Notes: generated by a model from the letters alone, not told the origin. Shown: positions 20,331-49,993, counted from the stretch's first letter. The stretch: 64,000 nt of DNA from Patescibacteria group bacterium (GCA_024277435.1 JAJRVJ010000024.1:276-64275), one strand, 5' to 3'. Numbers and translations: made by a program.

Positions 20331-21314
20331 ATGACGCCAAAGAAATCAACTCAAGAATATGTACTGGGAATAGACTCAGGAGGCACAAAAACAGCGGCTG
20401 CCGTAGCTGATGCTAATGATGTACTTGGTCAAGGCGAAAACGGCCCTGGTAATATTGCCACAACCCCACCGGCCGACTTAATAAAACACCTACAGAAAGC
20501 TGTTGAAAAAGCCCTTCATCAGGCTAAGCTTCCGGCAACTACTAAATTCAAGTATATTGCCGTAGGAATGGCCGGAATAGACGATGAAAAAAACCAGCGT
20601 AAAGCTGAGCAAACGGTAAGCACTGCGCTGCGTAAATGGAAAACAAGTCGCACTACCCTAGCTGTACTGAACGATATTCACGTAGTGCGTCGTAGTGGAA
20701 CCGATTATCCATATGGAATTGCATTAATTGCTGGAACCGGATCTCATGGCCTAGGTATTAATCCGCAAGGTGAGGTAGCCCGAGTATCTGGAGTAGAATA
20801 CTTATTAGGTGATGAAGGTAGTGGATATGAGATGGGTGTAAAAGCATTGCGCGCAGCTATACGTAGCGCGGATGGTCGAATTCGAAAAACACATTTAGAA
20901 GAAGCTGTACTAGAATACTATACCGTAGATTCAGTGCGCGAACTTATTCCAGTAGTCTATAAAAATCCTGGTCGCAATAAAGCCCTTATCGCAGAACTCG
21001 CTAAGGTAGTAGAAGATGTAGCTGCCGATCATAATGATTGGCGCGCCAAACAAATTATTCAAGAAGGGCTTGATGAACTAGTGCTAGATGTTGCTACTTT
21101 AGTAAAACGACTAAAATTAAAAAATCTACCGTTCGATATAGTAGTGGCCGGTGGCATCTTTAAAATGAAACGCCTACCATTTCTACTTCGCTTTAAAAGA
21201 AATGTTAAACGCATAGCTCCAAAAGCTACCGTGGTAATGCCAAAGCGAGCTCCTGTGTGGGGTGCGGTTCGATTAGCGCAAGATCAGCTCCGTAAAAGTG
21301 ATGGGGCTCAATAA
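20331..21314 (+). CDS. BadF/BadG/BcrA/BcrD-type ATPase, N-acetylglucosamine kinase-like
   Basis: YVLGIDSGGTKTAAAV is the N-terminal phosphate-1 motif of the BadF/ROK-like sugar kinase fold, followed by LIAGTGS. Confidence 0.7.
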   Translation: MTPKKSTQEYVLGIDSGGTKTAAAVADANDVLGQGENGPGNIATTPPADLIKHLQKAVEKALHQAKLPATTKFKYIAVGMAGIDDEKNQRKAEQTVSTALRKWKTSRTTLAVLNDIHVVRRSGTDYPYGIALIAGTGSHGLGINPQGEVARVSGVEYLLGDEGSGYEMGVKALRAAIRSADGRIRKTHLEEAVLEYYTVDSVRELIPVVYKNPGRNKALIAELAKVVEDVAADHNDWRAKQIIQEGLDELVLDVATLVKRLKLKNLPFDIVVAGGIFKMKRLPFLLRFKRNVKRIAPKATVVMPKRAPVWGAVRLAQDQLRKSDGAQ

Positions 21315-22644
21315 TGCTATGAAATACATCCTAAATCTCACCTACCTCACTATTGTTCTTCTGCCAGCTGTGTTCTGGTGGGAAAATAAAAAAGAACTTT
21401 TTCAACTAGACCTTACTGTAGAAGTATACTTAAATTTATTTGGACAACTCGCTGGGCTCATTGGATTATCCATGATGTTTATGCAAATGGTAATTGCCGC
21501 CCGCAAGCACTGGATTGAGCGTTGGTATGGGCAAGATCGCCTCATGCGTTATCATCGCACCGCTGGACTAGTAACACTTCTTCTACTTCTCATTCATCCT
21601 AGTAGCTTCTATATTGCCTATTGGCTAGATAGCTATGAAGCATTCATGTCATTTCTATTACCATCGTTAGATTGGAAATCACTAGGAGTTGTATCATTAA
21701 ATTTACTTATTCTTACCATCATTCTTGCGTTATGGAGTGCTAAATTCAAAATAAAATATCACTGGTGGAAACGCATTCATTACATTACTTACCTCGCAAT
21801 GCTAGGCGGATATCTACATTCACTATTTCTGGGTTCAGATCTATTAATGGCTGGAAACATGCGTAATTATTGGTACTTCCTAGGAGGTATTGTAGTTCTG
21901 TCATTCCTCCATCTACGAATATGGAAACCATTGCTGGCAAAAATGCGTCCATATTCTATAGAATCAATTCGTAAAGAAGCAAATGGTGTACGCACTTTTA
22001 TCATTAATAAAAGTAACACGCATTCACTTAATTATGCGCCAGGCCAGTTTCTGTATATTAAATTTATCTCAAAAGATGTAACAACCGAATGGCATCCGTT
22101 CACTATTTCCAGCTCACCTACCGATGATACTCTTATGGTATCTATTAAAGCATCCGGTGATTGGACAAGCACTCTAGACTCAGTGATGCCTGGCGATCGA
22201 GTGCAACTCATGGCTCCATACGGAACATTCAATTTTGAACGACGCACAAGTAATACCGATATTGTATTTATCGCTGGCGGTATTGGTATCACCCCATTCC
22301 GTAGCATGCTACGCTATATTGCCGATAAAAAATTACCACATACCATACACTTACTGTATGGTAACCAAACGCGAGACGATATCGCTTTTCACGATGAACT
22401 TGATGCGCTAGACAAACAATTTGATGCTATTACTGTTACGCACGTACTTTCTAAGGATAAAACCTGGGATGGTGCAAAGGGACGCATTGATACACAGTGC
22501 CTAGAAAAATATGTGAGTGATATAGATAAAAAAGATTATTTTATCTGTGGACCCCCTGCAATGATGAAGGCTGTTAAACAAAGTTTGCGAGATTTAGGTG
22601 TTTCAAAAAATCAAATTCATACTGAAGAATTTTCTCTAAAATAA
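21298..22644 (+). CDS. ferric reductase / NADPH-oxidase (NOX/FRE) family flavocytochrome
   Basis: Six TM helices with paired His residues (heme ligands). The FAD motif HPFTISS and the NAD(P) motif GGIGITP (GxGxxP) follow. 448 aa. Confidence 0.75.
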   Translation: MMGLNNAMKYILNLTYLTIVLLPAVFWWENKKELFQLDLTVEVYLNLFGQLAGLIGLSMMFMQMVIAARKHWIERWYGQDRLMRYHRTAGLVTLLLLLIHPSSFYIAYWLDSYEAFMSFLLPSLDWKSLGVVSLNLLILTIILALWSAKFKIKYHWWKRIHYITYLAMLGGYLHSLFLGSDLLMAGNMRNYWYFLGGIVVLSFLHLRIWKPLLAKMRPYSIESIRKEANGVRTFIINKSNTHSLNYAPGQFLYIKFISKDVTTEWHPFTISSSPTDDTLMVSIKASGDWTSTLDSVMPGDRVQLMAPYGTFNFERRTSNTDIVFIAGGIGITPFRSMLRYIADKKLPHTIHLLYGNQTRDDIAFHDELDALDKQFDAITVTHVLSKDKTWDGAKGRIDTQCLEKYVSDIDKKDYFICGPPAMMKAVKQSLRDLGVSKNQIHTEEFSLK

Positions 22645-23048
22645 TGGGCAAACATCACGACCAACACGGCATCATTAAACTACTAAAAGAACGCGGTGAA
22701 CGCATCACACAGCCACGCGTACAGGTGATTGAATATTTATGCGATCATGATACTCCGGTAAGTGTGAAAAACCTGGAAAAAGCTTTGCCAAAAATTAACA
22801 TGGTAACGCTCTATCGTATTCTTGAGTATCTTGTTGAACACGACGTAGTAAAAGAACTTACACATGATCCCAAAGAAAAGTATTTTGAAATTGCTGACCC
22901 CTACCACGACCATCATCATCATATGATTTGTCGACGCTGTAACAAAATTCGCGATATTGACTGCAAAGTAGAAGTGCCCATTGTAAGAGACTTTATACCA
23001 GAAATGCATGTTGTTACCATATATGGACATTGCAAAAAATGTACGTAA
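22644..23048 (+). CDS. fur: Fur-family metal-responsive transcriptional regulator
   Basis: Winged-helix N-terminal part (ITQPRVQVIEYL), an HHHH box, and a CRRC...CKKC structural zinc site. Start overlaps the upstream stop (TAATG). Confidence 0.85.
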   Translation: MGKHHDQHGIIKLLKERGERITQPRVQVIEYLCDHDTPVSVKNLEKALPKINMVTLYRILEYLVEHDVVKELTHDPKEKYFEIADPYHDHHHHMICRRCNKIRDIDCKVEVPIVRDFIPEMHVVTIYGHCKKCT

Positions 23049-23450
23049 TTGATACAGTCAATACATACTATTCATTATCATATCTTTATGACAGAACGCG
23101 AACATAACATAGATCCGGAAGCTCAGCAGGTCAAAACTACACCTACTACACCCACAGCAACAGTAGTGCCAAAATCTGAAGGAGAACTAAGTAGCGGAGC
23201 AACCGCTGGTATCGCTACTGGAATTGGTGTTGGTAACGTATGTTGTGGTCCAATGTGCTACTGCATGCCATCGTTAGCATCAACTATTGTTGGTGTAATA
23301 CTCTATTTTGTATGGAAAGATAAAAAGCCTAAAACAGCTAAAACCATCCTAATAGTAACACTGATTACTGCTGGAATAGCTTTATTTAGCATGGGCGTAC
23401 TCTTCATGCTTGGCATGGCTGGCGCAATACTTGATAGCACTAATTACTAG
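23049..23450 (+). CDS. small Cys-cluster membrane protein (hypothetical)
   Basis: GNVCCGPMCYCMPSL Cys cluster followed by two TM helices. Abuts the fur stop. An alternative start MTEREHN exists at about 23091. Confidence 0.4.
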   Translation: MIQSIHTIHYHIFMTEREHNIDPEAQQVKTTPTTPTATVVPKSEGELSSGATAGIATGIGVGNVCCGPMCYCMPSLASTIVGVILYFVWKDKKPKTAKTILIVTLITAGIALFSMGVLFMLGMAGAILDSTNY

Positions 23451-23456
23451 TACAGC

Positions 23457-23807
23457 GTGAAGCCATTACATCATTACGTATGGATCTGTCATCGCAGACC
23501 AGATCGTTCATTTTTTTACCATGGAACCCAATACCCAGTATGCTCACGTTGCACAGGAACATGGCTTGGATATGGTATTGGAGTACTTATCATACTATTC
23601 TGGATAGCACCTATATGGATGGGATTACTATTAAGTATCCCTGCGGTAATTGATGGCGGTACACAATTTTTTCGTTGGCGATCTAGTAATAATCGCTTAC
23701 GATTAATCACCGGAACACTCCTTGGCGTATCTGAAGTAATACTATTTACACACATAGCCATCTGGGCAACACAAGCCGGATATTATATTGGCACCCTAGT
23801 GCGGTAA
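23457..23807 (+). CDS. DUF2085-like membrane protein (hypothetical)
   Basis: CHRRPDRSF...PVCSRCTGTWLGY followed by TM helices resembles the conserved CxRCTG motif of the DUF2085 family. Confidence 0.4.
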   Translation: MKPLHHYVWICHRRPDRSFFYHGTQYPVCSRCTGTWLGYGIGVLIILFWIAPIWMGLLLSIPAVIDGGTQFFRWRSSNNRLRLITGTLLGVSEVILFTHIAIWATQAGYYIGTLVR

Positions 23808-29206: not shown

Positions 29207-29355
29207 AGATATGCATTATAGCATATTCTAAGACCTCACCCATAATCTCGACCCATCCCCTTACAGGAGAGGGATTATTGACGCATATTCCCCGTCTCCT
29301 GAAAGGAGAAGGGGTTAGGGGAAAAGGTCGAGACTAGGGATTGGGTGAGGTTTTT

Positions 29356-29411
29356 TTAGAAAAGCAAAAGGCCCGTGAACCTTAATGGTGGAATACACCA
29401 GTTCACGGGCC
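29356..29411 (-). terminator. intrinsic terminator for the GC-rich island transcript (minus strand)
   Basis: Perfect 11-bp stem ggcccgtgaac / gttcacgggcc (29370-29380 / 29401-29411) with a 20-nt loop. An A-run lies on the plus strand just before it, so a U-run follows the hairpin on the minus-strand RNA. Confidence 0.5.
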
Positions 29412-29561
29412 AGATTGTTTGCCGCCGACTCCCGCTGCAAGAGCAAGGCCGGTCAGGCTGGGACCGCGTTTACGCGACCCCACGGGGTTTGGGTTGGGAG
29501 CTCTACTCAGCTCAACCAACCGATGTGCGTTTTACTTCCGGGAGGTAGCCGGAAGGGGGCT

Positions 29562-30116
29562 CTAGAACAACCAGAGGAGGAAGTCCTTGAACTCCTCCCC
29601 CATCGACACCGTGCTCTCCGCGTGCCAGAAGCCCGCGGGGTAGCCGAACGTGAGGTAGAACCCGAGGATGACGCCGCACGTCATGACGACGTACCAGAAC
29701 CGGCGCATGCCGATCCCGTTCACGAGCTTCACGTTCTGCAAGAACACGAAGCTCAGCGACAGGCCGATGACGACCACCGTGAAGCGGGCGTCCATCAGCC
29801 GGGCCGGAGCGTTCGGCGCGATCCAGTCCACCGGGCCAGACATAACGTCCAGCCCCCAGGCGAACAGGAACCACAGCACCGAAAAGATCGGCGCTGCGAT
29901 AATCACCGAGATCACCGCCCAGGCCAGCCGCTTGCCGAATCCCGGCAACTTCGCCTTGGGGTTGTACTTGGCCAGGAGCGACTGCTCCTCAGGACTCGTC
30001 TCCAGCTTCTGGCCGGTGACGACCCTCACCACCACCATGGTGGCGATGAGGCCAAGAGCCAGGAGCGCAGCGATGAAGCTACCGGCGATGATCCAGTTCA
30101 GGGTTGTGGTAGGCAT
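29562..30116 (-). CDS. GC-rich island gene: polytopic membrane protein (hypothetical)
   Basis: GGAG plus ATG at 30116 (MPTTTLNWIIAG...). About 5 TM helices, Trp-rich. Visibly much higher GC than the surrounding genes. Confidence 0.5.
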   Translation of the reverse strand: MPTTTLNWIIAGSFIAALLALGLIATMVVVRVVTGQKLETSPEEQSLLAKYNPKAKLPGFGKRLAWAVISVIIAAPIFSVLWFLFAWGLDVMSGPVDWIAPNAPARLMDARFTVVVIGLSLSFVFLQNVKLVNGIGMRRFWYVVMTCGVILGFYLTFGYPAGFWHAESTVSMGEEFKDFLLWLF

Positions 30117-30274
30117 TTTAAGCTCCGGTGAGTGATTGAGAGAAGAACAGAAAGTTAGTAGAGATGACCTCAATCCGCTGGCTCGTTGCCGTGCGGAGAA
30201 ATCTTTCTCTTTCATAAAGCGATGGGTCGCGGCGAGAGGAACGAATCCATCCTCGCCGCGACCCGGATTGGTGA

Positions 30275-31981
30275 CTACGGCCCACCGAAGGGACCGCCGC
30301 CACCGAAGCCAGCGCCAGCCGCCGCGCTAGCGATGGCAGGGTTGAGACCCATGCCACCAAGCGCGGTGATGACGTTGTCGATGCCGGCGTCACCCATGGC
30401 TAGCAACGTCGTAACGTTGGCCACCGCGCGAGCGATGGTAGCCTCGTCGATGTTGGCATCTCGGAGGCTCTGCACCATGTTGTGGATGTGGAACCGTCGG
30501 CTCAAGACATTCTTGTCCGCCTCGGAGGACGGCTCGGGGTCCTTCAGCCGGTTCTCGTCCCGCGGCACGTAGAGCCCGCAGCTCTCCGTCAACTGCGCCT
30601 CGAAGGCATTCAGCAACGGGAGAACACGAGCTTCCGCACGACGCGCCTGCATTTTCGGATGGCGCGAAGTGGCCGCCCGAAACTGACCAGGCTGAGCCAG
30701 CTCTGCGATCGGCATCATGGCCCCGACGAGGTCGAAGCCGACCACATGGCACAGGCCACCGGCCAATGCGTCCAACGCGTCGTCGAGGACTCGCACCCAG
30801 GATGGGTTGTTCCACATGAGGAACACGTTGATGACGCGCCAGTTGAATCCACCCTTGACGGTGACGTCAACCGTGCCGGCCATGTACGGCCCCTTCTCGT
30901 AGTCCCAGTCCGTGATGGGCTGGAGCAAGAAGTACTCGATGCCGAGGGCAGCGAGCGTGGGGCTGTGAGCCGCGAAGAACTCGAACATGGAGTCGTTCAA
31001 CGTCATGATCCGCGTGTAGAACGGGATGCCGGGGAAGGCGAACCCGGGGCCAACCCAGAGGTTCCGGTTAAGGAAGGGCCGGGGGTCAGCCCGGTTCTCC
31101 AGATCCACCTGCATCCAGGTCCAGACCTCCTCGAGGTTTCCGGTGATCGTCCACCACAGCCCAGGCCACAACGGCAAGGGCTCGTTAGGCAGCGGAACGC
31201 CGGTGAGGTTCGCGATGGCGTGGGAGGGGTTACCACCCGCGCCGAACATCTTGGCGACGCCGGGCTTGTCCACCGCGGCGTACCAGACGTTGCGATCCGC
31301 CATCCACATGTTGATCGAGATCCAGGTGAGGAGCACGACCAAGACGATTCCGACGGTAACGATGACCACTACGCCCTGCATCACCACGCTGAACCAGCCA
31401 CTGAGGCTGGTCTGTGCCCAACCAACACCCTGCAATCCCCACCAAAGGAGAACGCCCGCCACAGCGGAGCGCAAGCCCCAGTAGAAGGCGCCGGGCCGCA
31501 CCACGAAGTGGACGAACCGGCTGGCGAGGATGTAGCCGAACATGATGGCGGCCAGGATGAGCCACGTCTTCCCAGCCATGGCCGGGTCGTAGATGGCTCC
31601 AGCCTTCACGGGCAGCACGTGGATGAGCTTCATCATCCAGTGGTCCGCGCCCCAAGGAAGCGTCTTCGGCTTCACGAAGGGGAGGAAGTAGATGAAGGTG
31701 ATCGCCATGCCCTGCAAGAGGGCGACGGGGCTCCACGGCTGGCCGACGACGAGCGTGTTATCACGCCGGCGGGTGAAGTAACCGGTGAGCGCCCAAACAG
31801 CCGCGGCCATGAGGGCCGGGACGAAATGATCCATGTTGATGGGGTTGGGGTTGGGGTTAGAAAAGTTGAGGCTGTCGATCACGTCCTTGGCGAAGAACGC
31901 CAGGACGAAGATCCAGATAAGATTGAGGAAGGACATGAAACGCCGGAAGTTTCCGAAGTGCATTAGAATCTCCTGATGCAC
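30275..31981 (-). CDS. GC-rich island gene: 568-aa polytopic membrane protein with a soluble C-terminal domain and Gly-rich tail (hypothetical)
   Basis: A 1.7-kb open frame in GC-rich DNA. Seven or more N-terminal TM helices, a Trp-rich soluble region, and a tail ending ...AGAGFGGGGPFGGP. No family recognised. Confidence 0.55.
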   Translation of the reverse strand: MHQEILMHFGNFRRFMSFLNLIWIFVLAFFAKDVIDSLNFSNPNPNPINMDHFVPALMAAAVWALTGYFTRRRDNTLVVGQPWSPVALLQGMAITFIYFLPFVKPKTLPWGADHWMMKLIHVLPVKAGAIYDPAMAGKTWLILAAIMFGYILASRFVHFVVRPGAFYWGLRSAVAGVLLWWGLQGVGWAQTSLSGWFSVVMQGVVVIVTVGIVLVVLLTWISINMWMADRNVWYAAVDKPGVAKMFGAGGNPSHAIANLTGVPLPNEPLPLWPGLWWTITGNLEEVWTWMQVDLENRADPRPFLNRNLWVGPGFAFPGIPFYTRIMTLNDSMFEFFAAHSPTLAALGIEYFLLQPITDWDYEKGPYMAGTVDVTVKGGFNWRVINVFLMWNNPSWVRVLDDALDALAGGLCHVVGFDLVGAMMPIAELAQPGQFRAATSRHPKMQARRAEARVLPLLNAFEAQLTESCGLYVPRDENRLKDPEPSSEADKNVLSRRFHIHNMVQSLRDANIDEATIARAVANVTTLLAMGDAGIDNVITALGGMGLNPAIASAAAGAGFGGGGPFGGP

Positions 31982-32602
31982 GAGAACTTTTTGGGTAAAC
32001 CCAGGATAGTAAATTTCCCCGAACCAACGCTTCCGCGCCAGCCCGGTTAACTACCCCTCGATCTTGTTGACCTACCCACCACTGGGCAAGAGTCATAATT
32101 TTCCATTGCACCCTTGCGGATGGTAGGCAGATCGATGTATGGGGCCTAATAAAACCACATGCATCGATCTGCCTGTTATAGGTAACAGATCTATTGTTAT
32201 TTCGTATGTAAGTTGTCAAAGATCACCCGTACTACAATTCCGTCCATTACTGCGCGTCCCCCGTAGGGGATCAATTGCTTGTAGAGGTACAAACGTTTTG
32301 CGCCTCTACTTCAATTGATACATTAATTATACGCTGGCTATTTGGTACTATATATATGTGTTTGGTGTATATTTGAAAGAGTGCATTCCTTCAAATAACA
32401 CCTGTTGATTATACGCCGCTCTGTTATTACCTTCGATAGCTATACAGTGCATAACGTATATATTGCATCATCAATAAGATGACTAATCAGTTTAGACCTA
32501 GTAGCTCAAACCCACAATATATAAAAGGTGCACAACTGAAAAGTAAAACATTATAATTAAAAAATAACTATTTGTCAATAATCTCTATCACAATCAATAT
32601 TA

Positions 32603-32657: not shown

Positions 32658-33428
32658 TCAGCTCTTTTTCAGCAATTTACGAATATTCGAGCGCTGACCA
32701 AATAATACAATACTACCAATAATCATCAATATTGCAGACCATTGCGCTGCCGTTAACCCATAAAACGTAGCATCTAATATACGAGAAAAATCAGCTATTA
32801 AGCGAAAAATACCATACCACAGCAAAAATATAATGCTAAAAAATGGTGGCTTTGGCGTATATTTTTTCTTTAAAAACATGAATACTGAAAACATCGCCAA
32901 GCCATTAAGCGATAAATACAAGCCATGATTATGGCGAATTAATCCATCTAAATGATACTCTTCACCAAGTATAAAATCAGTTTCTATTCCAGGATGATCA
33001 AATATAAAGAAACATCCTAAGCGGCCAATAAATAATCCCAACGGCAAGTACATTACAATTACTTCTGCATAGCGCCAGAATGACAAACCTTTTTTCTTCA
33101 AATAAATATACGCTGCTAATACAGCGCCAATAAACCCACCAGTAATAGACATGCCACCCTCCCAAACACGAAGCACTCCTAGCCAGTCACCAATATATAA
33201 TTGCAACTCGGTAATCACAAAATACAATCGTGCACCAATTAATGCTCCTAAGATAATCCAAAACGCAACATCAAATACTACCTCTCCATTCAACTTTTGA
33301 CGGACTGCTTCTTTTTTAGAAAACACTAATGCCGTAACAATTCCTGCTGCCACGAATAACCCCCACACCTGCAGCGTAACAAAACCTAATGGAATTTCAG
33401 ACCAATAAATATCTGGGATCATACTCAA
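32658..33428 (-). CDS. lgt: prolipoprotein diacylglyceryl transferase
   Basis: Seven-TM Lgt profile: ...GLFVAAGIV..., GARLYFV and the FIGRLGCF region. ATGA-type overlap with the upstream DsbA-like gene. Confidence 0.8.
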   Translation of the reverse strand: MSMIPDIYWSEIPLGFVTLQVWGLFVAAGIVTALVFSKKEAVRQKLNGEVVFDVAFWIILGALIGARLYFVITELQLYIGDWLGVLRVWEGGMSITGGFIGAVLAAYIYLKKKGLSFWRYAEVIVMYLPLGLFIGRLGCFFIFDHPGIETDFILGEEYHLDGLIRHNHGLYLSLNGLAMFSVFMFLKKKYTPKPPFFSIIFLLWYGIFRLIADFSRILDATFYGLTAAQWSAILMIIGSIVLFGQRSNIRKLLKKS

Positions 33429-34195
33429 TTAACAATTATACTTTCTAAATATTCAGTGTTTACATAACCATCAATCAATTCAAGTTCTTCGCCTTCGCGC
33501 CAAATAACTAAGTTCGGTTGGCTCGTAATTCCCAACTCTAACGCTTCAGCTACATCATTCTCAACGCGCTGTTCTATTGTTGGATTATCTAAACAAGCAC
33601 CAAACACATCTATGTCTAACTCTAGTTCCGTTGCGATATCTAAATATACTGCTGTACTTAACTCTGATTGTTTTTCAAATAGTTTATCGCTATATTCCAA
33701 GAACGTATCTTGCTCCCCCGCACACTCGGCAGCAATAGCCGCTGATTTTGCTTGCGGATGAATTTGTGTAAGTGGATAATGTTTAACAATATAACGCACT
33801 GTATCATTGCGCGTAGCTACAAACTCTCGCAATGTAGGAAAAAATTTCTTACAGAATAAACATTCATAATCAACATAGCGCACTAACGTTACAGAATAGT
33901 CTTCAACTGCTCCTGAAATATGTGTATCATCTGTAATGGTAATATCCCCTTCCGTTGTTTGCGTAAGTGTACTTCTTGGTTCTTCCAATAAATCGTGTGA
34001 GCTTTCTAATGGCGTTACTTCAAGTGGTTGAATATCTGCACCAGATAATGTATATGAAAAAAATGCTATTCCACTCATCGTCATGATACTAATTCCGGCA
34101 ACCACACCTATCACAAATGTAAGTCGTGGATTTGTATGCTCTGAAAAATACAGTTCTTCCACGCCATCCTGTATATTATCCTTATTCCTATCCAT
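33425..34195 (-). CDS. membrane-anchored DsbA/BdbD-like thiol:disulfide oxidoreductase (paralog 1)
   Basis: N-terminal TM helix, then a thioredoxin fold with active site YECLFCKKF (CxxC) and a DsbA-like helical insert. Confidence 0.75.
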   Translation of the reverse strand: MDRNKDNIQDGVEELYFSEHTNPRLTFVIGVVAGISIMTMSGIAFFSYTLSGADIQPLEVTPLESSHDLLEEPRSTLTQTTEGDITITDDTHISGAVEDYSVTLVRYVDYECLFCKKFFPTLREFVATRNDTVRYIVKHYPLTQIHPQAKSAAIAAECAGEQDTFLEYSDKLFEKQSELSTAVYLDIATELELDIDVFGACLDNPTIEQRVENDVAEALELGITSQPNLVIWREGEELELIDGYVNTEYLESIIVN

Positions 34196-43133: not shown

Positions 43134-43400
43134 TTATTCGATAGAATCTATATCAGTTTCATCAACGGTGGTTGTATTTGATTCCTCGAGGCTCTCGCTT
43201 GCATCTACTTGCTGATCTATCTGGCAATCATTCTCGTAGCAGTATGCCAGGGCGGATTCATAAAATCGAATCTGCTGACTAGACAACTGAACTTGAACGA
43301 TTAATCCAGACATAAGCAGACAAACACAGAGCGTCAATATGACCAATATGATCTTATTGCCAACTGAGTGATGAGCATACGAAGAAACCGACCGTCTCAT
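43134..43400 (-). CDS. small membrane-anchored hypothetical protein
   Basis: 88 aa with one TM helix and an acidic C-terminus. Sits between rpiB and the DsbA paralog. Confidence 0.3.
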   Translation of the reverse strand: MRRSVSSYAHHSVGNKIILVILTLCVCLLMSGLIVQVQLSSQQIRFYESALAYCYENDCQIDQQVDASESLEESNTTTVDETDIDSIE

Positions 43401-43452: not shown

Positions 43453-44145
43453 TTAGTAGGATTCCAAGGCAGCCTCTATGATAGTTCCCCAACTATCCAC
43501 AGTAAGTAGCCCTTCAACCTTCTGACCATTTATAAAATAGGTAGGAGTTGATGTAACACCACTTAATAAGCCTTCGTTATAGTCTTGCTCAACCTCATCA
43601 GCAAATTGCTCACTATCCAGGCAAGTTTCGAAACGCGTAGTATCCAAGCCAGCTTCAGCTGCTAATGATGAAAATATACCAAATTGCGATAATTGATTTT
43701 GATTTTCGAATAATAAATCATGGTATTCCCAAAACGATCCTTGCTCATCAGCACATTCAGCAGCCATAGCTGCCGGACGAGCATACGGATGAATGGAATC
43801 TAATGGAAAATCACGGTACACAAATAGTATTTTGTTGGGATACTTCAATAATACCTGATTCATAATTGGAGCGGCTTGCTGACAAAATGGACATTGAAAA
43901 TCTTCAAATGCAATAATTTCTACCGGAGCCCCAGGAATACCAATGTACGGATCATCATTGCGTCCAGGAGTAAACCCTGTAACACTATCATTTGCTGTAT
44001 AATTAGATGTTTCGCCAGTACGAATTTTCTGAACTTCGCTATACACCATAGCAAGAAAGGCTACACCAATTAACAAGACCCCTAACACAACAATTAGAGC
44101 AAGTATTTTCCAAAAACTTTTGTACCACGGTCTATAAATACTCAT
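43453..44145 (-). CDS. membrane-anchored DsbA/BdbD-like thiol:disulfide oxidoreductase (paralog 2)
   Basis: TM anchor plus FEDFQCPFCQQAAP, a CPFC active site in a thioredoxin fold. ATGA overlap with paralog 3. Confidence 0.75.
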   Translation of the reverse strand: MSIYRPWYKSFWKILALIVVLGVLLIGVAFLAMVYSEVQKIRTGETSNYTANDSVTGFTPGRNDDPYIGIPGAPVEIIAFEDFQCPFCQQAAPIMNQVLLKYPNKILFVYRDFPLDSIHPYARPAAMAAECADEQGSFWEYHDLLFENQNQLSQFGIFSSLAAEAGLDTTRFETCLDSEQFADEVEQDYNEGLLSGVTSTPTYFINGQKVEGLLTVDSWGTIIEAALESY

Positions 44146-44969
44146 TCTTCTAATACGCTATCAATTAACTTCATCATACCATTAATTGGTACAGCACCGG
44201 AAAATGTAATCTGCTGACCATCTGGAGCAATTAATATACTGGTTGGTGTACCACTTACGCCAACCCGTAAACCATCTTCAAATTGGCTATCTACCAATTC
44301 AATATACTTTTCACTATCTAAACATTCACGAAACGCCACTGTATCAACATCATGTTCAGCCGCTAAATCCTGCAAAGCATCAGCTGTATCATGCGAATCT
44401 TGTTCAAATAGATCGCTGAGATACGCCCAAAAGGCATCATTACCAGCTACCTCAGCTACACATTCTGCTCCCTGCGCCCTAAGCACGGCATTTGGATGAC
44501 TACCCTTGAGAGGAAAATGACGATACACCCAACTTACCTTTCCATTATATTGCTCTACAACAGCTTCCATAATTGGATGAAAACTTTTACAAAACGGACA
44601 TTCTAAATCTGAGTACTCAACAATTGTTACAGGCGCATTAGACGGCCCTAGACGATGATCGGTATCCGTTAACTCAACAGGAGCCTTTGGAGCTTTCGTA
44701 GGTAAATCTACATCAACATCTGTATCAGTATCATCCACAGCGTTTAATTGCGTAGGATCTTGTACAACAGCTAGCGCATCAAGTGTAATATCGGTTTTCA
44801 CTATGCGATAACCAGTAAACAACATCGATACGGTTACAAAAAACATAATGCTAATAGTAAACAAAAAACCACCGGCAAATCCGATGCGAACTGCTGTGGT
44901 TAGTGTCATTTTTGGTGATTGGGAATTCTGCGTGCTATTCATAATATATATCAATAGACATAATACCAT
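44142..44969 (-). CDS. membrane-anchored DsbA/BdbD-like thiol:disulfide oxidoreductase (paralog 3)
   Basis: TM anchor plus YSDLECPFCKSFHP. The true start is probably an internal ATG (MNSTQ... or MTLTT...), which would remove the 35-bp overlap with the M56 gene. Confidence 0.7.
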   Translation of the reverse strand: MVLCLLIYIMNSTQNSQSPKMTLTTAVRIGFAGGFLFTISIMFFVTVSMLFTGYRIVKTDITLDALAVVQDPTQLNAVDDTDTDVDVDLPTKAPKAPVELTDTDHRLGPSNAPVTIVEYSDLECPFCKSFHPIMEAVVEQYNGKVSWVYRHFPLKGSHPNAVLRAQGAECVAEVAGNDAFWAYLSDLFEQDSHDTADALQDLAAEHDVDTVAFRECLDSEKYIELVDSQFEDGLRVGVSGTPTSILIAPDGQQITFSGAVPINGMMKLIDSVLEE

Positions 44970-45921
44970 GTTCTGTACTAGGAATGGAAATAGTTGTCAT
45001 ATTTATCTCTGTAGATTGCATAGTGGGCGGCATACTTATTACATCAACACACATTGGCTGCTCTTGAATACATGTTGATAATACCTCTTGAGAGTTATCA
45101 CTTTGAGCAGCCGCTGTATAGGTTGCTCCCAATACTAAGGCAAGAGTAATTACCACTCCTAGTAAAGGGGTAAATCGTGGCCGCGGCACCGACTCCCCTA
45201 TTAATCGATTTATTCTCAACTGGGTTGGTGAAAAAAATGTAGCGGCCAACCCTGCGCTATTTTGTGAAAACTCCAGCACCTTACCTAGCGCTCGACTAAG
45301 CATAGCATCATCACCAACGGATTCATCTGCGGCAATTTCTGCCAACGACTCGATATGATTCACTATTGTTTTCGTTCCAGGAAATAACGGCTGAATACTC
45401 CGTAATAATAATCTATGAATTGGATCAAAGCCTTTGGCATGAGCCAATTCATGACGTAACACTGCCCATAACTCAAATCCAGATAATACCTCTTCTAATG
45501 TTGTACTTACATAAATACGCGGCTTCCATATACCAATGCATACCGCTATGGGTTTATCGAACTGTGTGCGATGAATTTGAATTCCACCAATAACCGTTGT
45601 GCGAATACTATTTGAACGAAGTTCTTTCTCCAAACGACGAGTAACTAACAGTGCTCGAATAATTCTACCAAGAATAATTATTACAACAGCGAGTATTGCC
45701 AATACCGTTAACCCTATCATTATAAACGTCGCCGGATTAATTGTGGTAAGTGATTGCGAGCACCCACACGTATCCACCACATGCCCAACCGCTGCTGTAG
45801 TTGCCCTATTAAATACTATGCCAAGCATTTCAAATGCAACGCTAAATACTGCAGTTACAGTAAGCACAACAACTGCTACGCTAGAATACACAAAGGTAAT
45901 AAATTTACCCCGATTCGACAT
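44935..45921 (-). CDS. BlaR1/MecR1-type M56 peptidase-family membrane signal transducer, lacking a penicillin-binding sensor domain
   Basis: Four TM helices plus the M56 zinc motif HELAHAKGFDP (HExxH) in the cytoplasmic loop. The C-terminal extracytoplasmic part is short and contains Cys pairs (CIQEQPMC). An N-terminal CGC is also present. Confidence 0.7.
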   Translation of the reverse strand: MSNRGKFITFVYSSVAVVVLTVTAVFSVAFEMLGIVFNRATTAAVGHVVDTCGCSQSLTTINPATFIMIGLTVLAILAVVIIILGRIIRALLVTRRLEKELRSNSIRTTVIGGIQIHRTQFDKPIAVCIGIWKPRIYVSTTLEEVLSGFELWAVLRHELAHAKGFDPIHRLLLRSIQPLFPGTKTIVNHIESLAEIAADESVGDDAMLSRALGKVLEFSQNSAGLAATFFSPTQLRINRLIGESVPRPRFTPLLGVVITLALVLGATYTAAAQSDNSQEVLSTCIQEQPMCVDVISMPPTMQSTEINMTTISIPSTEHGIMSIDIYYE

Positions 45922-45925
45922 GAGT

Positions 45926-46309
45926 TTATTTACAATCGCTTAATCGTTTCTTAAGCTGATCAATTGCCGAAGGATCAATATCCTCAACAATATCAACAAA
46001 TTGCGCCACAGCTAAATCGCCATAGTTTTTAATCAATTGTTCAATAATTGATTTTGATGTTTGTAATTTTAATTGATCCTCGCTATTTACTGGCGAATAC
46101 TCGTATGCCTTTCCAATCTTCTTGCGCTTCAATACCCCCTTCTTGGCCAAACGATCCATAGTGGTCATTACTGTTGTGTAAGCAATTTTTCCACCCCTCT
46201 TCTCCAGCACCTCATTAAAAACACACCGCACAGTAGCACAACCGCGGTGCCACACTACGTCCATTACCATTTGTTCAAGTTGCCCTAGTGGTTTAAGAGA
46301 TTTTCGCAT
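45926..46309 (-). CDS. BlaI/MecI/CopY-family winged-helix transcriptional repressor
   Basis: 127 aa: ...LGQLEQMVMDVVWHRGCATVRCVFNEVLEKRGGKIAYTTVMTTMDRLAKKGVL... is the penicillinase-repressor fold. Immediately upstream of the M56 gene. Confidence 0.8.
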   Translation of the reverse strand: MRKSLKPLGQLEQMVMDVVWHRGCATVRCVFNEVLEKRGGKIAYTTVMTTMDRLAKKGVLKRKKIGKAYEYSPVNSEDQLKLQTSKSIIEQLIKNYGDLAVAQFVDIVEDIDPSAIDQLKKRLSDCK

Positions 46310-46344
46310 AAATAAAAATACTTTCTACTACAAAGTGTAGTATA

Positions 46345-47265
46345 CTATTCCATTTCCGTCAAAAGCTGTTGAGCCGTTATAAGCAACTGTTTTACTTTTG
46401 CACGTTTTAAACCTGTGATACGAACTACTTTTTCTAGCGGTATTTCCGCCAATTGCTGTACCAATATAATATTTTTATCAAACAAGCTTTTTTTGGCGGA
46501 TTTATTTAAGCCAGACAGAACGGTGATAGGATACAATCCCTTAGCTTCAACATGTTCATTTAAGCCCTTCCCTCTTGGATGATGCCAAGCTAATACTTTC
46601 ATACCCATACAATCTGCGTAACTTATTGCATCGACCGTAATTTTAGTATTTGTTACTAGCCATGGAACATGGTTCTTATGTGATATACTCTCTTGTTTAT
46701 TCCATGTATGTTGGACATCTAAGAAACGAGCGTACACATAGAGTGCTACTCGAATATTCGTTTTTGCTCCTGAATAGTGATGATGCTTGCACTCAATCAT
46801 GTAGTGAGAATTTCCACGCTCTGCTACTACATCTATCTCATGACGCACACATTTACCATTCACAAACTGGTTGGTTTTTGTTTTATATCCATACGCGTTA
46901 AACACGTGGGCGATATATTGCTCGAATGGAAATCCACTAGGACCGAGATCAACGATCGCGCGCTTCAAATTATAACGAGCGGCTGCAACCAGATCATTTT
47001 TTTTAACCAATGCGCTTTCAGTAGCCGCATGCAGCTTATCGGTTGAAACAAGATTATTTTCATCATGCGTAACCATGCGTAATACCTCTTGAGCCAAACT
47101 ATGCTCGATACCGGCCAACCGCATCGACTGCAAATACTTTTTCCTCACAAATACCTCTGTATCACCAGTAGTTTTTTTAATACGATGTTTTTTACCACTC
47201 TTACGACCACCTTTTTTATGATGCTTTTTATGGCTGCGCTTTTTCGTCATGTATTCAGTATACAC
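46345..47265 (-). CDS. Mrr-like restriction endonuclease-fold protein with a basic N-terminal tail
   Basis: GFPFEQYIAHVFNAYGYKTKTNQ...RHEIDVVAE resembles the Mrr_cat (PD-(D/E)xK) N-terminal core. Lys/His-rich N-terminus. Confidence 0.45.
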   Translation of the reverse strand: MYTEYMTKKRSHKKHHKKGGRKSGKKHRIKKTTGDTEVFVRKKYLQSMRLAGIEHSLAQEVLRMVTHDENNLVSTDKLHAATESALVKKNDLVAAARYNLKRAIVDLGPSGFPFEQYIAHVFNAYGYKTKTNQFVNGKCVRHEIDVVAERGNSHYMIECKHHHYSGAKTNIRVALYVYARFLDVQHTWNKQESISHKNHVPWLVTNTKITVDAISYADCMGMKVLAWHHPRGKGLNEHVEAKGLYPITVLSGLNKSAKKSLFDKNIILVQQLAEIPLEKVVRITGLKRAKVKQLLITAQQLLTEME

Positions 47266-47272
47266 AAAAAAT

Positions 47273-47296
47273 AACGGCAGCCCTAGAGCTGCCGTT
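47273..47296 (-). terminator. candidate intrinsic terminator (minus strand) upstream of the Mrr-like gene
   Basis: Perfect 9-bp stem aacggcagc / gctgccgtt with a 6-nt loop. An A7 run on the plus strand just before it gives a U-run on the minus-strand RNA. Confidence 0.4.
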
Positions 47297-47533
47297 CATA
47301 TATAGTTGGGCGCTTAACAAGCGCAACCGTCTCCACCTAATACCATAAGTGTATAAATTATTTATTAGTAAAGAGAATATGCAAGGAGTACTAACAAGCG
47401 CACTCTCCGCCTTCGCAACAACCACCTTCTCCGCCTACATAAGCATTGTAAAGTTTAATAGTAATATTGTACGTTAATTTATTAAGTACTACGCAATGTA
47501 GTATAACAGATTTTATTACTTTGTCAATAACTT

Positions 47534-48028
47534 TTATTGAGAATTAAGTAAGTTTTTGGACTTACTAAACCATCCATCCACAGAGAGCCATTTTTGCGAA
47601 GTAATAATCAATACAATAGCCAAAGCCAGCAGCACTAGGTCTCTCCAGAGTAACTGACCAAACGTATCTCCAAAATGCAAGGCATCTCCAAAACATCCGC
47701 AATCCTCTAATGTACGTCCTCTAGTCATGTTCACAACAATTCCGATAATGAAACTAACCGTAGATAAACTAATTACTACAGAACTAAACCGCACAAATGC
47801 ACCAATAATGAGTAGTAAGCCAAATATCACCTCTACCCATGGTAATGCTGTCATGTACCATGTTAATAGTGGATCGGGAATAATATCCCAACTACGTCCA
47901 ATGGCAATGAAATCAGCAATTGGCTCCATGAGCTTGGCGCCACCAGCTAGCACAAATACCCCGCCAAGCACTACTCGGGATACAAGTACAAAATATTTGT
48001 TATTAATTAACTTCTTCAATGCTTCCAT
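47534..48028 (-). CDS. DoxX/MauE-family membrane protein with a CGCFG motif
   Basis: Four TM helices and the DoxX-like profile (VSRVVLGGVFVLAGGAKL...). A conserved Cys pair EDCGCFG lies in the last loop. Overlaps the end of the upstream DsbA paralog. Confidence 0.65.
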   Translation of the reverse strand: MEALKKLINNKYFVLVSRVVLGGVFVLAGGAKLMEPIADFIAIGRSWDIIPDPLLTWYMTALPWVEVIFGLLLIIGAFVRFSSVVISLSTVSFIIGIVVNMTRGRTLEDCGCFGDALHFGDTFGQLLWRDLVLLALAIVLIITSQKWLSVDGWFSKSKNLLNSQ

Positions 48029-48821
48029 CTTCTTTTATCTCTTCAGTAAGATTAGTATCCTCTTCAACTCCATTAACACCATCAATTCCAGATTGCTCAC
48101 GAGCTTTTTTAAGCTGATCTTTAATTTCCTTCTGCAAGCTACTGTACGCTCCTACACCAGCATAGCGCTCTCCATTAATAAATAACGTTGACGTGGATTG
48201 CACCTCAGCTGCATCACCCTCATTCACATCTTCTTGTACTATTGCTCGCTGCTCGTGCTTATCTAAGCATGCTTCAAATGCATCGGTATCATATTCTAAC
48301 TCTGCCACATATCCCTTAAACAAGTCTTCAGTCTGCTTTGATGTCGCCTGGCTAGCCCATACATCCTGTTCTTCAAATAATTTATCATGATATGTCCAGA
48401 ACGCATCGTTACCTTCATTAGCGAATACACATTGCCCTGCTTCTGCAGCAATAAATGCATATTTGTGTATATTCACTGGTAATGGAAAATCGTTATATAC
48501 CACTGAAATATCATCGCCAAACTCTTCAACAGCTTGCCTTAACTGCGGGGCCATTTTTAAACAAGCTGGACATTCAAAATCGCTGTATTCTTCAATAACA
48601 ACTAATGGATCACTACCGCCTTTTGTAGGATCATCACTTACACCTTGTGTAGGAGTACCATCTGGGCTTACCGCCGCTTTAATAACCCACACCAATACAA
48701 TAACTACTATAATAACAATACCTACCACGACAGCTTTTTGAGTACTTTCAGTAGTATCAGTTTTTTTAGGCTTGTTCGTAGCTTGCTTACCACCTTTTTT
48801 ACTTAGTGATTTTTCTCCCAT
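48003..48821 (-). CDS. membrane-anchored DsbA/BdbD-like thiol:disulfide oxidoreductase (paralog 4)
   Basis: Basic N-terminus, a TM helix, then YSDFECPACLKMAP (CPAC) in a DsbA-like thioredoxin fold. Confidence 0.7.
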   Translation of the reverse strand: MGEKSLSKKGGKQATNKPKKTDTTESTQKAVVVGIVIIVVIVLVWVIKAAVSPDGTPTQGVSDDPTKGGSDPLVVIEEYSDFECPACLKMAPQLRQAVEEFGDDISVVYNDFPLPVNIHKYAFIAAEAGQCVFANEGNDAFWTYHDKLFEEQDVWASQATSKQTEDLFKGYVAELEYDTDAFEACLDKHEQRAIVQEDVNEGDAAEVQSTSTLFINGERYAGVGAYSSLQKEIKDQLKKAREQSGIDGVNGVEEDTNLTEEIKEDGSIEEVN

Positions 48822-48833
48822 AGGTAAAATAAT

Positions 48834-49823
48834 TTATGAATAGAATTTTTTAGCTTCCTCTAATGTAATTTGTGTAATTGCTGGTGCTTGTCCGGCGCAG
48901 CCAAAAGCAATCATACGTGCTTTCACAACCTCCATAAGTGCATCACGGGCTGGACCAAGATACTTGCGTGGATCAAACTCTTCAGGCTTTTCCTTTAATA
49001 CCTTGCGAATAGCGCCGGTCATAGCTATACGACCATCTGTATCAACATTAATTTTGGTAACACCATGTCCACACGTCTGCTGCAACTGCTCGATATCAAC
49101 ACCCTTAGCACCCGGCATGTTGCCGCCATTCTCATTCACTATCGCTACTAATTCTTCTGGCACCGAAGATGAACCGTGCATTACTAATGGTGTATTGGGT
49201 AATTTTTGATGAATCTCTTCTAATAAATCATGACGTAACTCACATTCGCCTTCAAATTTATTGGCTCCATGAGAAGTTCCAATAGCAATAGCTAACGAAT
49301 CTGCATTCGTTTCTTGTATAAACTGCACTGCCTGATCTGGATCGGTATAATGAATTTCATTAATACCTGCATCATCCTCTACTCCGCCAATAGTTCCTAA
49401 TTCGGCTTCCACAGAAACACCAAATGGATGCGCATATTCTACAACCGATTTGGTAACGGCTACGTTTTCTTCGTATGATAATGCACGCGTACCCTCTGGA
49501 TTTAATGATCCATCTATCATTACAGAAGTAAACCCAAGATCGATGGCATTTTTTACAACATCTAAATCACTTCCATGATCTAAATGCAATACAATAGGAA
49601 TTTCTGGATATTCTTCCACTGCAGCATGAACGATATTACGTAGATACGTCATACGAGAATACTTAAGAGCACCTCGTGATACTTGAATAAATACGGGAGA
49701 TTTCGTATCGGCGGCCGCGTCTACGATAGCCTGCACTTGTTCCATGTTATTTGCATTAAAAGCGCCAATGGCATATCCATTAGCGAAGGCGTGTTCGAGA
49801 AGAGGTTTTGCGGGTACGAGCAT
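48834..49823 (-). CDS. fba: class II fructose-bisphosphate aldolase
   Basis: ...NGYAIGAFNANNMEQVQAIVDAA...PVFIQVSRGALKY...HLDHG... are the canonical FbaA class II motifs. Confidence 0.9.
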   Translation of the reverse strand: MLVPAKPLLEHAFANGYAIGAFNANNMEQVQAIVDAAADTKSPVFIQVSRGALKYSRMTYLRNIVHAAVEEYPEIPIVLHLDHGSDLDVVKNAIDLGFTSVMIDGSLNPEGTRALSYEENVAVTKSVVEYAHPFGVSVEAELGTIGGVEDDAGINEIHYTDPDQAVQFIQETNADSLAIAIGTSHGANKFEGECELRHDLLEEIHQKLPNTPLVMHGSSSVPEELVAIVNENGGNMPGAKGVDIEQLQQTCGHGVTKINVDTDGRIAMTGAIRKVLKEKPEEFDPRKYLGPARDALMEVVKARMIAFGCAGQAPAITQITLEEAKKFYS

Positions 49824-49993
49824 ATAATATTATTTAAAACAATAATTACTACGGAAGATAGTATACCGCAATGTTAATAATGATGTCTACTAGCTTCTGT
49901 TTACTACATACCAGGCTTATGATTATACACTGAGCAGGTGGAAATAGTGAAGAATAAGCATAGTATTATAACCGCAACGATTGCGACCAATAT

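Follow-up and report, generated by a model that had tools for sequence, protein, structure and literature searches.

We analysed a stretch of 64,000 nucleotides from a small, uncultured, Kerfeldbacteria-like Patescibacteria group bacterium (GCA_024277435.1 JAJRVJ010000024.1:276-64275; hereafter the window) and found that a BlaI-like repressor, a membrane protease of the M56 (BlaR1) type and two tandem dsbA-like genes, which together occupy positions 43453-46309, form a real, conserved regulatory module. Domain and fold tests assign the repressor and the protease to the BlaI/M56 family. A regulatory link of this pair to oxidative folding is supported at the sequence level, because the same putative operator lies upstream of blaI-M56-dsbA-dsbA and of an fba-dsbA-mauE operon. 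As for what the pair senses, we tentatively favour a proteolytic thiol-based envelope sensor (probability about 0.45), with a soft metal (copper) slightly preferred over disulfide status as the trigger. The operator, a set of micro-peptide genes, MauE as the likely DsbB analogue and the Cys motifs as the mark of a large family all go beyond the original prediction for this DNA, which had been made from the sequence alone and had proposed a redox-sensitive switch of oxidative-folding capacity.

The surroundings of the cluster have about 40% GC, are gene-dense and are transcribed almost entirely from the minus strand. The original prediction of four co-oriented genes that overlap or abut was borne out in position and in strand (minus), with junctions of 4-8 nt overlap or a 4-nt gap. 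As read from the sequence, a 4-nt gap separates blaI from the M56 gene, the M56 stop overlaps the start of dsbA-like gene 1 by 8 nt (ATGAATAG), and the two dsbA-like genes overlap by 4 nt (ATGA). The start of dsbA-like gene 1 is most likely at 44942 (MNSTQ..., 266 aa) rather than at the position giving the maximal open reading frame (ORF), 44969. The proposed families (repressor, M56 and two DsbA) were each matched in the Pfam search above cutoff (Table 1), the CPFC active sites of both tandem genes were read in the translations, and the two further DsbA paralogs that had been reported, with CPAC and CLFC motifs, are both present. A terminator-like hairpin inside dsbA-like gene 1 (44886-44870) was disregarded, because terminator-like sites were no commoner than in shuffled sequence (5 vs 4.2).

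The hydropathy of the M56 protein indicated three transmembrane (TM) segments (15-33, 66-84 and 253-271). The zinc motif HELAH, which had been noticed before, is found at residues 157-161 and is accompanied by E195IAAD199 (ExxxD), and these motifs are invariant in the family. The reported CGC and CIQEQPMC are present too, the first as C52-G-C54 in a loop and the second as C284 and C291 (Cx6C) in the C-terminal tail. The loop (residues 34-65, 32 residues) contains 1 K/R, the tail (272-328, 57 residues) contains 0 K/R and 8 D/E, and the HELAH domain (85-252, 168 residues) contains 22 K/R. Thus, hydropathy and the positive-inside rule place the HELAH domain inside and both Cys groups outside, as the redox-switch proposal needed, and this topology agrees with the AlphaFold2 (AF2) model and with the BlaR1 alignment described below. 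In addition, Pfam confirmed the absence of a transpeptidase or penicillin-binding sensor domain, and just 57 residues follow the last TM segment.

A profile of 32 M56 homologues matched BlaR1 of S. aureus in the PDB (8EXP, 1.7e-8), aligning positions 67-285 with BlaR1 106-332; TM2 fell on BlaR1 residues 106 onward, and TM3 on the last TM segment of BlaR1. A single-sequence phmmer search against the PDB did not recover BlaR1, which was recovered by the profile and fold searches only. The AF2 model (mean predicted local distance difference test, pLDDT, 83; predicted TM-score, pTM, 0.76) has a helix at 251-296 and low pLDDT in the 37 tail residues beyond C291. With this model, the five best Foldseek matches were BlaR1 structures (8EXP/8EXS on top; prob 1.0, with a TM-score of only 0.36-0.40). 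In BlaR1, extracellular loop 1 (EL1, residues 56-96) docks into the sensor domain and passes the signal via helix alpha3 to the protease (PMC9834060). Given this position of EL1 and the alignment of TM2, the CGC motif sits in the EL1-equivalent loop. Meanwhile, the Cx6C motif is modelled on the helical continuation of the last TM segment, exactly the place of the sensor domain of BlaR1.

C52, C54, C284 and C291 were invariant in the 32 diverse homologues (20-39% identity), and the same holds for H157, E158, H161 and E195 (zinc/catalytic) and D199. A hidden Markov model search for M56 relatives returned 6,104 cluster representatives at E ≤ 1e-3, of which 1,209 reached E ≤ 1e-10. Among the 146 full-length top representatives, the CxC was present in 123 (as CGC in 97 of these), the tail pair in 119 and both motifs in 112; 16 had neither, 11 the CxC only and 7 the tail pair only. 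The two motifs are therefore lost jointly more often than singly, in counts uncorrected for phylogeny. The four Cys define a large predicted M56 subfamily. Homologues from a wider search were mostly high-GC (actinobacterial) M56 proteins without CGC, and M56 systems of other lineages that share the operator have loop and tail Cys in other numbers (1+1, 1+3, 2+1).

To locate the operator, the 64-kb window was scanned for TACTAC-N5-GTAGTA (17 bp, ≤1 mismatch). Four sites were found (O1-O4) against 0.11 expected, and 0 of 100 shuffles reached four. Each of them lies between genes and adjoins or overlaps a -10-like hexamer, which is TATACT at three sites and TACACT before blaI. O1 contains the -10 of a TTGACG-17-TACACT promoter (46362-46334). 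The promoter at O2, TTGACA-16-TATACT (47527-47500, minus strand, 11/12, TG-extended), is the best promoter match in the region. O4, on the minus strand, directly follows TGcTATACT and stands between gnd (6-phosphogluconate dehydrogenase, minus strand) and a plus-strand operon of cyclase, BadF-type ATPase, ferric-reductase/NOX-like and Fur genes. Upstream of 46309 and of the dsbA genes, where a search for a palindrome had been suggested, stand O1 and O3. Furthermore, a TACA/TGTA operator core is typical of the BlaI/MecI/CopY family (PMC7253601). We infer that BlaI binds these sites, and the repressor would then control the units that bear them.

Counterparts of the operator were found in relatives. 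O1 has a counterpart directly upstream of blaI in nine loci (L001, L004, L005, L009, L010, L012, L015 and the distant L013 and L014). The O2 arrangement of promoter plus operator follows mauE in L004, L009, L010, L012 and L015, and at this position L001 has the operator and the -10 with no clear -35. O3 has better copies in L004 and L009 (TACTACAGC(T/G)TGTAGTT) and a weaker copy in L001.

Several observations concern the sites and their neighbours. A weaker operator-like site (8620-8636, 3 mismatches) precedes a transaldolase gene (8672). Pentose-phosphate genes cluster around the regulon, namely gnd, transaldolase and rpiB-rpe-tkt downstream of the dsbA genes. The region of O4 and the operon beyond it (18671-23807) encodes a kynurenine-formamidase-like cyclase, a BadF/BcrA-type ATPase, a transmembrane ferric-reductase/NOX-like flavocytochrome, a Fur-family regulator and a DUF2085 protein. 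In addition, blaI, an Mrr-like gene, the micro-ORFs and fba have a -10-like box 6-25 nt before the ATG and no Shine-Dalgarno sequence; this impression from a handful of uncounted promoters suggests that leaderless or short-leader mRNAs are frequent in the lineage.

Each of the four DsbA paralogs has a Thioredoxin_4/DSBA domain above cutoff, a CxxC motif and one N-terminal TM segment, so that domain and motif predict DsbA-like oxidoreductases with a redox function. Their pairwise identities of 31-40% (37% for tandem genes 1 and 2) indicate old paralogues. In the fba-dsbA-mauE operon, a 12-nt gap is followed by a 26-nt overlap (dsbA/mauE). The MauE protein matches PF07291 with 80.9 bits (cutoff 27), carries the active-site motif EDC110GC112FGD (a CXC-F-G loop) and shows 3 clear TM segments rather than 4 in a crude hydropathy scan. 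A recent survey reported that MauE substitutes for DsbB, with the CXC-F-G loop as active site; candidate phyla were excluded from that survey, so the use of MauE in the candidate phyla radiation (CPR) lies outside its coverage (bioRxiv 10.64898/2026.03.05.709764). The dsbA(CPAC)-mauE pair of the window has the same loop, but it is placed behind a BlaI-type operator. MauE is likely the DsbB analogue that re-oxidises DsbA. With operators before both operons, three of the four DsbA genes plus this likely re-oxidant are operator-linked, and the window scan gave no operator at ≤1 mismatch near the fourth dsbA (33425).

Taken by itself, the dsbA(CPAC)/mauE stretch (47534-48821) looks like an oxidative folding pair of the MauE type, without DsbB. 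Quinones are generally held to be absent from CPR bacteria, which bears on the electron acceptor of MauE. The fourth dsbA overlaps lgt (prolipoprotein diacylglyceryl transferase; 32658-34195), and in L013 (10007-12378) lgt again lies within a thiol-redox cluster (CxxC membrane protein, Lgt, CcdA, Redoxin), so that the Dsb-Lgt adjacency recurs.

Close relatives of the M56 protein are few, and their contigs include a metagenome-assembled genome (MAG) of Candidatus Kerfeldbacteria (GCA_016182495.1). A scan of species-representative genomes gave one Kerfeldbacteria MAG only, and a first scan of metagenome proteins for relatives gave no match. The common gene order is fba - dsbA - mauE, micro-ORF, Mrr-like gene, then blaI - M56 - dsbA (one or two) - small TM protein - rpiB - rpe - tkt; in this comparison the L010 contig ends upstream, and the L012 contig, whose upstream gene differs, stops shortly beyond M56. 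Gene order, operator positions and peptide genes are shared by at least seven related contigs. The order blaI-M56-dsbA is kept in every related contig that extends past M56, and operators stand at the same three positions at an M56 identity of only 34-42%. L013 and L014, which were reached via protein similarity alone and have unrelated surroundings, also carry the operator before blaI, and L013 has a second copy right after M56.

When metagenomes were scanned for the operator together with the flanks usual for it, 120 loci were obtained, 7 of which encode blaI plus M56. DsbA follows M56 behind an operator in L091/L055; it also follows M56 in L090, with no operator at ≤1 mismatch between them. 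Not all systems share the linkage: in the L014/P0056 group, a gene of no assigned family takes the place of DsbA after M56, and L038/L106 have FtsX/ABC exporters in place of the dsbA linkage. The linkage on which the original prediction rested is thus kept in all sufficiently long related contigs and recurs in a distant clade (L090, L091/L055).

Other Cys-rich membrane or exported proteins accompany the distant loci. In L013 (9512-10000), L090 (11607-12092) and L091 (1585-2118), the DsbA/thioredoxin gene behind the operator is followed by a gene for a small membrane protein, which has a G-C-x-x-C-G motif within the membrane and belongs to no Pfam family. A relative of 484 aa comes immediately after the operator in L025, L122 and L057. 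The small protein is a candidate for a new DsbA partner or metal carrier. Directly behind the second operator of L013 (7160-8419) are two proteins with the C-terminal end ...MVGGC, one with CEYCCG...ACGCAHSQ and the other with HECESC; their homologues lie behind two operators in L111. They look like Cys-rich exported proteins and have no Pfam family.

The O2 promoter and an intrinsic terminator bound a unit of about 200 nt that encodes two Cys-rich micro-ORFs. Micro-ORF 1 has ATT where its relatives have ATG, so its translation is uncertain. Every related locus has the unit at the same place; the peptides of relatives include MYTFKSGDGCDCGGQCAC, MKYTQFGGEGDCGGTCAC and MKYLGEGGCCGGGCSC, L004 encodes MKYTKLGGEGDCGGACAC plus a second copy, MKYVGGEGSCAC, and L012 encodes MKYLGGEGCACGGSCAC plus a second copy, MKYLGGDGTCGTC. 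GC hairpins with T-runs follow the micro-ORFs in L001, L004, L009, L010, L012 and L015. Synonymous changes are among the differences between loci, which leave the reading frames intact. The peptides have 10-22 aa and 2-4 Cys in CxCx3CxC or CCx3-4CxC arrays, and they lack a signal sequence. A C-terminal CxC is kept in 10 of 11 peptides from 7 loci, the exception being the second copy of L012, which ends in CGTC. At the gathering threshold no Rfam family matched the micro-ORF region, and at E ≤ 1 there were chance matches only. No GGEG...CxC micro-ORFs were found beside the operators of the 120 metagenome loci, nor were the peptides found outside the Kerfeldbacteria-like clade. Their predicted function would be to buffer metal or thiols in the cytoplasm. 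A role of the micro-ORFs as a Cys-sensing leader or attenuator was judged unlikely, because in each locus a separate -10 serves the downstream Mrr-like gene, the ORFs occur in duplicate, and the terminator lies clear of the ORFs.

This Mrr-like gene (46345-47250, minus strand) always lies between the micro-ORF unit and blaI in L001, L004, L009, L010, L012 and L015 (49-63% identity), and it keeps its place even in L012, where the upstream context differs. It has an Mrr_cat nuclease fold, an AF1548-like C-terminus and, by our reading of the alignment, an ATP-cone-like N-terminus. It has its own -10 box and no operator, and the copy in the window has an extra, very basic N-terminal extension of 20 residues.

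The closest solved relatives of the repressor are M. tuberculosis Rv1846c (2G9W, 1.7e-11) and then MecI (1.6e-10). The stretch LVLN/FVE of MecI, in which we take N101/F102 to be the cleavage site, aligns with AVAQ103/F104VD of the repressor, and AQF or VQF is kept in most relatives; the cut in BlaI would probably fall between Q103 and F104. A CopY-type CxCx4CxC tail was not found in the repressor, whose C-terminus (...RLSDCK) holds a single Cys. It scored 48 bits against the CopY model TIGR02698, below the cutoff of 121.95, and its scores against the NCBIfam BlaI/MecI models were far below their cutoffs. The repressor also has a C24-x4-C29 pair (GCATVRCV) in the first helices of its winged-helix domain, which is kept in L004, L009, L012 and L015, half-kept in L001 and absent from distant members; C24/C29 might be a second, cytoplasmic thiol switch.

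Table 1. Features of the blaI-M56-dsbA module and of the predicted regulon, in window positions
Feature	Position	Strand	Evidence or context
blaI-like repressor, 127 aa, winged-helix	45926-46309	minus	Penicillinase_R PF03965 1.1e-25, 90.7 bits (cutoff 22.6), residues 8-124
M56 (BlaR1-type) membrane gluzincin protease, 328 aa	44935-45921	minus	Peptidase_M56 PF05569 3.4e-10, 40 bits (cutoff 31), plus M48
dsbA-like gene 1, CPFC (DLECPFCK), N-terminal membrane anchor TM 20-38, second Cys pair	44142-44942	minus	Thioredoxin_4 2e-26, DSBA 3.4e-18
dsbA-like gene 2, CPFC (DFQCPFCQ), N-terminal membrane anchor TM 14-32	43453-44145	minus	Thioredoxin_4 1.6e-31, DSBA 7.8e-19
Small membrane protein, 88 aa, outward CYENDC pair, own promoter-like site	43134-43400	minus	ORF and hydropathy
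dsbA paralog, CPAC (DFECPACL)	48003-48821	minus	Pfam; middle gene of fba-dsbA-mauE operon
Fourth dsbA paralog, CLFC (DYECLFCK)	33425-34195		Pfam
fba-dsbA(CPAC)-mauE operon; mauE at 47534-48028	47534-49823	minus	Pfam
O1, TACTACAAAGTGTAGTA, perfect 7+3+7 palindrome TACTACA-AAG-TGTAGTA	46326-46342		within 35-nt gap, 17 nt before blaI ATG
O2, TACTACGCAATGTAGTA	47487-47503		overlaps -10 of micro-ORF unit promoter
O3, TACTACGGAAGATAGTA, 1 mismatch to core	49847-49863		fused to TATACT -10 upstream of fba
O4, TACTATAAGCTGTAGTA	19604-19620		69-nt divergent gap, gnd (ATG 19579, minus) vs cyclase operon (19649 onward, plus)
Micro-ORF 1, (I)KLYNAYVGGEGGCCEGGECAC-stop	47391-47459	minus	homologous to MKY...GGEG..C..CxC-stop genes of relatives
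Micro-ORF 2, MVLGGDGCAC-stop, ATG start	47314-47346	minus	second copy
Intrinsic terminator, 10-bp stem, 6 GC pairs, T-run	47266-47296	minus	closes micro-ORF unit

The gene for the 88-aa membrane protein is kept 3' of the dsbA genes in L004 and L010, and in L015 a 119-aa ORF stands at its place (a positional correspondence only). The protein is a likely Dsb substrate, and it is uncertain whether it belongs to the module. Elsewhere in the window, a GC island (29300-32000) has 58-65% GC vs 38-40% around it and long ORFs on both strands, one of which (30275-31981, minus strand) encodes a membrane-like, Trp-rich protein of 568 aa with a Gly-rich C-terminus. No Pfam, PHROG or Rfam match, tandem repeat or plasmid match was found for the island, which could be a foreign insertion or an assembly chimera.

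The favoured mechanism would run as follows. At rest, a BlaI dimer would occupy the TACTAC-N5-GTAGTA operators over the -10 boxes that serve four transcription units. On the outer side, a thiol-reactive event, for which we favour the binding of a soft metal such as Cu(I), would alter the contact of loop and tail, and bound metal would also keep the four Cys from forming disulfides. The change would be relayed via TM2 to the cytoplasmic gluzincin site, and BlaI would be cut, probably at Q103/F104. Derepression would then raise blaI-M56-dsbA-dsbA (autoregulation), fba-dsbA-mauE (added oxidative-folding capacity), one or two CxC-rich micro-peptides (buffering of cytoplasmic metal or thiols), and gnd (NADPH supply) and/or the divergent cyclase/NOX/Fur operon. 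The presence of gnd is in keeping with a demand for NADPH during thiol-oxidising or metal stress.

In relatives, metal genes stand at or near the operator. Family precedents for a metal signal are CopY and the copper-responsive, sensor-less pair PetR/PetP. In L090, a gene for a Cu-type P1B ATPase and a DUF1573-DsbD_TM operon flank an exact operator; the ATPase has a heavy-metal-binding (HMBD) domain, a His/Met-rich N-terminus, YN and MSVSS motifs and CPD in TM4. The order in L091 is M56, operator, DsbA, CxxC membrane protein, YtkA, cation-diffusion facilitator (CDF) and DsrE, with a cupredoxin and an HMA-domain ORF 6 kb on (cut at the contig end and taken as the start of CopA). L018 shows operator, DsbD_2/cupredoxin, HMA, cupredoxin and P1B ATPase (by BLAST similarity to proteins of L077/L091/L090), and DsbD_2/cupredoxin genes are found in L013 and L077, with an HMA domain in L013. 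Several facts weigh against a metal trigger. In the ATPase of L090, CPD stands in place of CPC or CPH, which leaves its metal in doubt; the loci with metal genes belong to distant members whose M56 Cys counts differ (1+1, 1+3); and neither blaI nor M56 is present in the L018 stretch. The window and the Kerfeldbacteria-like loci, where the regulon consists of dsbA, mauE, fba, gnd and the peptides, show no metal transporter or chaperone. Furthermore, the metagenome loci were chosen by the operator pattern itself, micro-ORF 1 of the window has no canonical start codon, and the counts behind the joint loss of the Cys motifs are uncorrected for phylogeny. We infer the identity of the trigger, and the evidence points to a soft metal at least as strongly as to redox status. 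Of the proposed redox switch, the tie of the pair to dsbA and mauE genes stands, through the operator; for redox as the signal itself, the CxC peptides and the metal genes of relatives favour a soft metal at least equally. The two readings converge chemically, because a thiol-bound metal also prevents oxidation of the Cys.

A feedback on disulfide homeostasis is possible, although less probable than the metal-favouring sensor. The Cys would be kept oxidised by DsbA and MauE, and a loss of capacity or the arrival of reductants would leave them reduced and the protease active, giving more DsbA and MauE in a simple negative feedback loop. DsbA or thioredoxin-fold genes are indeed the most regular partners (Kerfeldbacteria-like clade, L090, L091/L055, L013/L111), the fba-dsbA-mauE operon has an operator, and the sensor loop D(T/A)CGC is similar to the active site of MauE, EDCGCFG, which might let DsbA read the loop. 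However, this would not account for gnd, for the CxC peptides, which are cytoplasmic, lack a signal and stand under the strongest of the operator-controlled promoters, or for the ATPase, CDF, cupredoxin and HMA genes beside or behind the operator in relatives; the M56 group L014/P0056 has the same Cys and no Dsb gene nearby. It seems unlikely that the Cys are purely structural disulfides which staple the loop to the tail, with another signal (an envelope ligand, misfolded secreted proteins or a peptide) and dsbA as operon cargo. Most M56 proteins are without a known sensor and their signals are unknown (PMC13492132), the 37-residue tail of low pLDDT after C291 could bind a partner, and Cys number varies among operator-sharing systems. 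Nevertheless, the Cys are as invariant as the zinc ligands while other loop and tail residues vary freely, they occupy exactly the two signal-carrying elements of BlaR1, and the regulon content is thiol- and metal-centred in unrelated lineages. A slightly more doubtful proposal is that M56 is a redox/metal decoy sensor, whose CGC loop would copy the MauE active site so that the DsbA pool sets the sensor state. The CxC peptides would be free-standing CopY tails, a ribosomally encoded thiol/metal buffer where no glutathione is made, and the whole would be the general thiol-stress regulon of a large undescribed four-Cys BlaR-like branch (about 1,200 cluster representatives, E ≤ 1e-10).

Functional coupling itself might be questioned, since the whole block, including the housekeeping genes fba, rpiB, rpe and tkt, is syntenic in the Kerfeldbacteria-like clade and its order could be merely inherited, with the palindrome as the site of another regulator or a promoter element. 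The left half-site overlaps the -10 hexamer TATACT, so the promoter may account for part of its conservation; however, the right half-site GTAGTA is equally conserved and is not a promoter element. The objection is removed by the operators upstream of blaI amid unrelated surroundings (L013, L014, L077) and by the M56-DsbA adjacency in L090/L091, where the flanks differ; the gene overlaps of 4-8 nt and the excess of operator sites over expectation also speak against it, and we consider the absence of coupling very improbable. Least credible of all is a canonical beta-lactam-sensing BlaR1/BlaI resistance system, which only the family names suggest. It is refuted by the domain test, with a 57-residue tail in place of a penicillin-binding domain; the lack of a beta-lactamase or PBP2a gene in the operon and the low scores against the NCBIfam BlaI/MecI models also speak against it.

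The proteolytic thiol-based sensor would matter in several respects. The four outward Cys at the two signal positions of BlaR1 are a chemically simple sensing candidate for one large non-antibiotic branch of BlaR proteins, and the defined operator with its predicted regulon could be rebuilt in a model host. In addition, the module would link regulated proteolysis to the control of oxidative folding (DsbA and the MauE route) in CPR bacteria, a group with a hardly studied envelope biology, and it exposes a conserved family of unannotated micro-peptide genes. In the literature, whose coverage was incomplete, we found no published description of the four-Cys M56 branch, of a BlaI-controlled DsbA/MauE regulon or of the micro-peptides.

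The module shares with BlaR1/BlaI and MecR1/MecI (Staphylococcus aureus, Bacillus licheniformis) the order of repressor and then protease, the Penicillinase_R repressor, a cytoplasm-facing M56 domain with HExxH/ExxxD, a palindromic operator with a TACA/TGTA core that overlaps the promoter, and autoregulation, which is predicted here from sequence. However, the M56 protein studied here has no penicillin-binding sensor and three predicted TM segments, not four, and it has CGC in the EL1-equivalent loop and Cx6C in the tail. The cargo is dsbA genes rather than beta-lactamase or PBP2a, and an odd centre of 5 nt separates the half-sites TACTAC and GTAGTA. In a 2026 survey, a transpeptidase (beta-lactam-binding) domain was found in only about 6% of BlaR-like M56 proteins, and the signals of the others are largely unknown (PMC13492132). 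BlaIR of M. tuberculosis and M. abscessus, CenIR of C. difficile and PvmSR of P. aeruginosa likewise combine BlaI with an M56 protein that has a short undefined outer tail, with no beta-lactam role expected, and Rv1846c of M. tuberculosis BlaIR is the closest solved repressor; however, none of them has been described with an invariant four-Cys sensor or a Dsb regulon.

CopY/CopR of Firmicutes resembles the studied pair in the repressor fold, in the operator style (cop box KACANNTGTM) and in CxC as Cu(I)/Zn ligand in CopY. The studied repressor differs in lacking the CxCx4CxC tail and in scoring below the CopY model cutoff; here CxC occurs in the partner protease and in free micro-peptides, and inactivation would be proteolytic rather than by metal binding. 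In their CxC arrays, the micro-peptides are similar to the CxCx4CxC tail with which CopY binds Cu(I)/Zn(II). Copper metallothioneins (Neurospora CuMT, mycobacterial MymT) are also short Gly/Cys-rich peptides with CxC motifs, but the predicted micro-peptides have just 10-22 residues, 2-4 Cys and N-terminal aromatic residues. Copper and Dsb functions are connected elsewhere as well: in the Scs system and with E. coli DsbC, thioredoxin-fold envelope proteins are induced by or needed under copper stress.

The sensor-less M56 protein PetP of Synechocystis degrades the BlaI-type repressor PetR in response to copper (bioRxiv 10.1101/2020.07.31.226407). Like the studied pair, PetR/PetP is a sensor-less M56/BlaI pair whose candidate ligands lie in the outer loop that precedes the protease-linked helix. 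However, PetP has four TM segments and conserved Met instead of Cys, PetR binds GAC-N5-GTC and controls petE/petJ, and neither Dsb genes nor micro-peptides belong to that system; a response to copper, shown for PetR/PetP, is a proposal for the studied pair. PetRP is the sensor-less BlaIR system with a known metal trigger.

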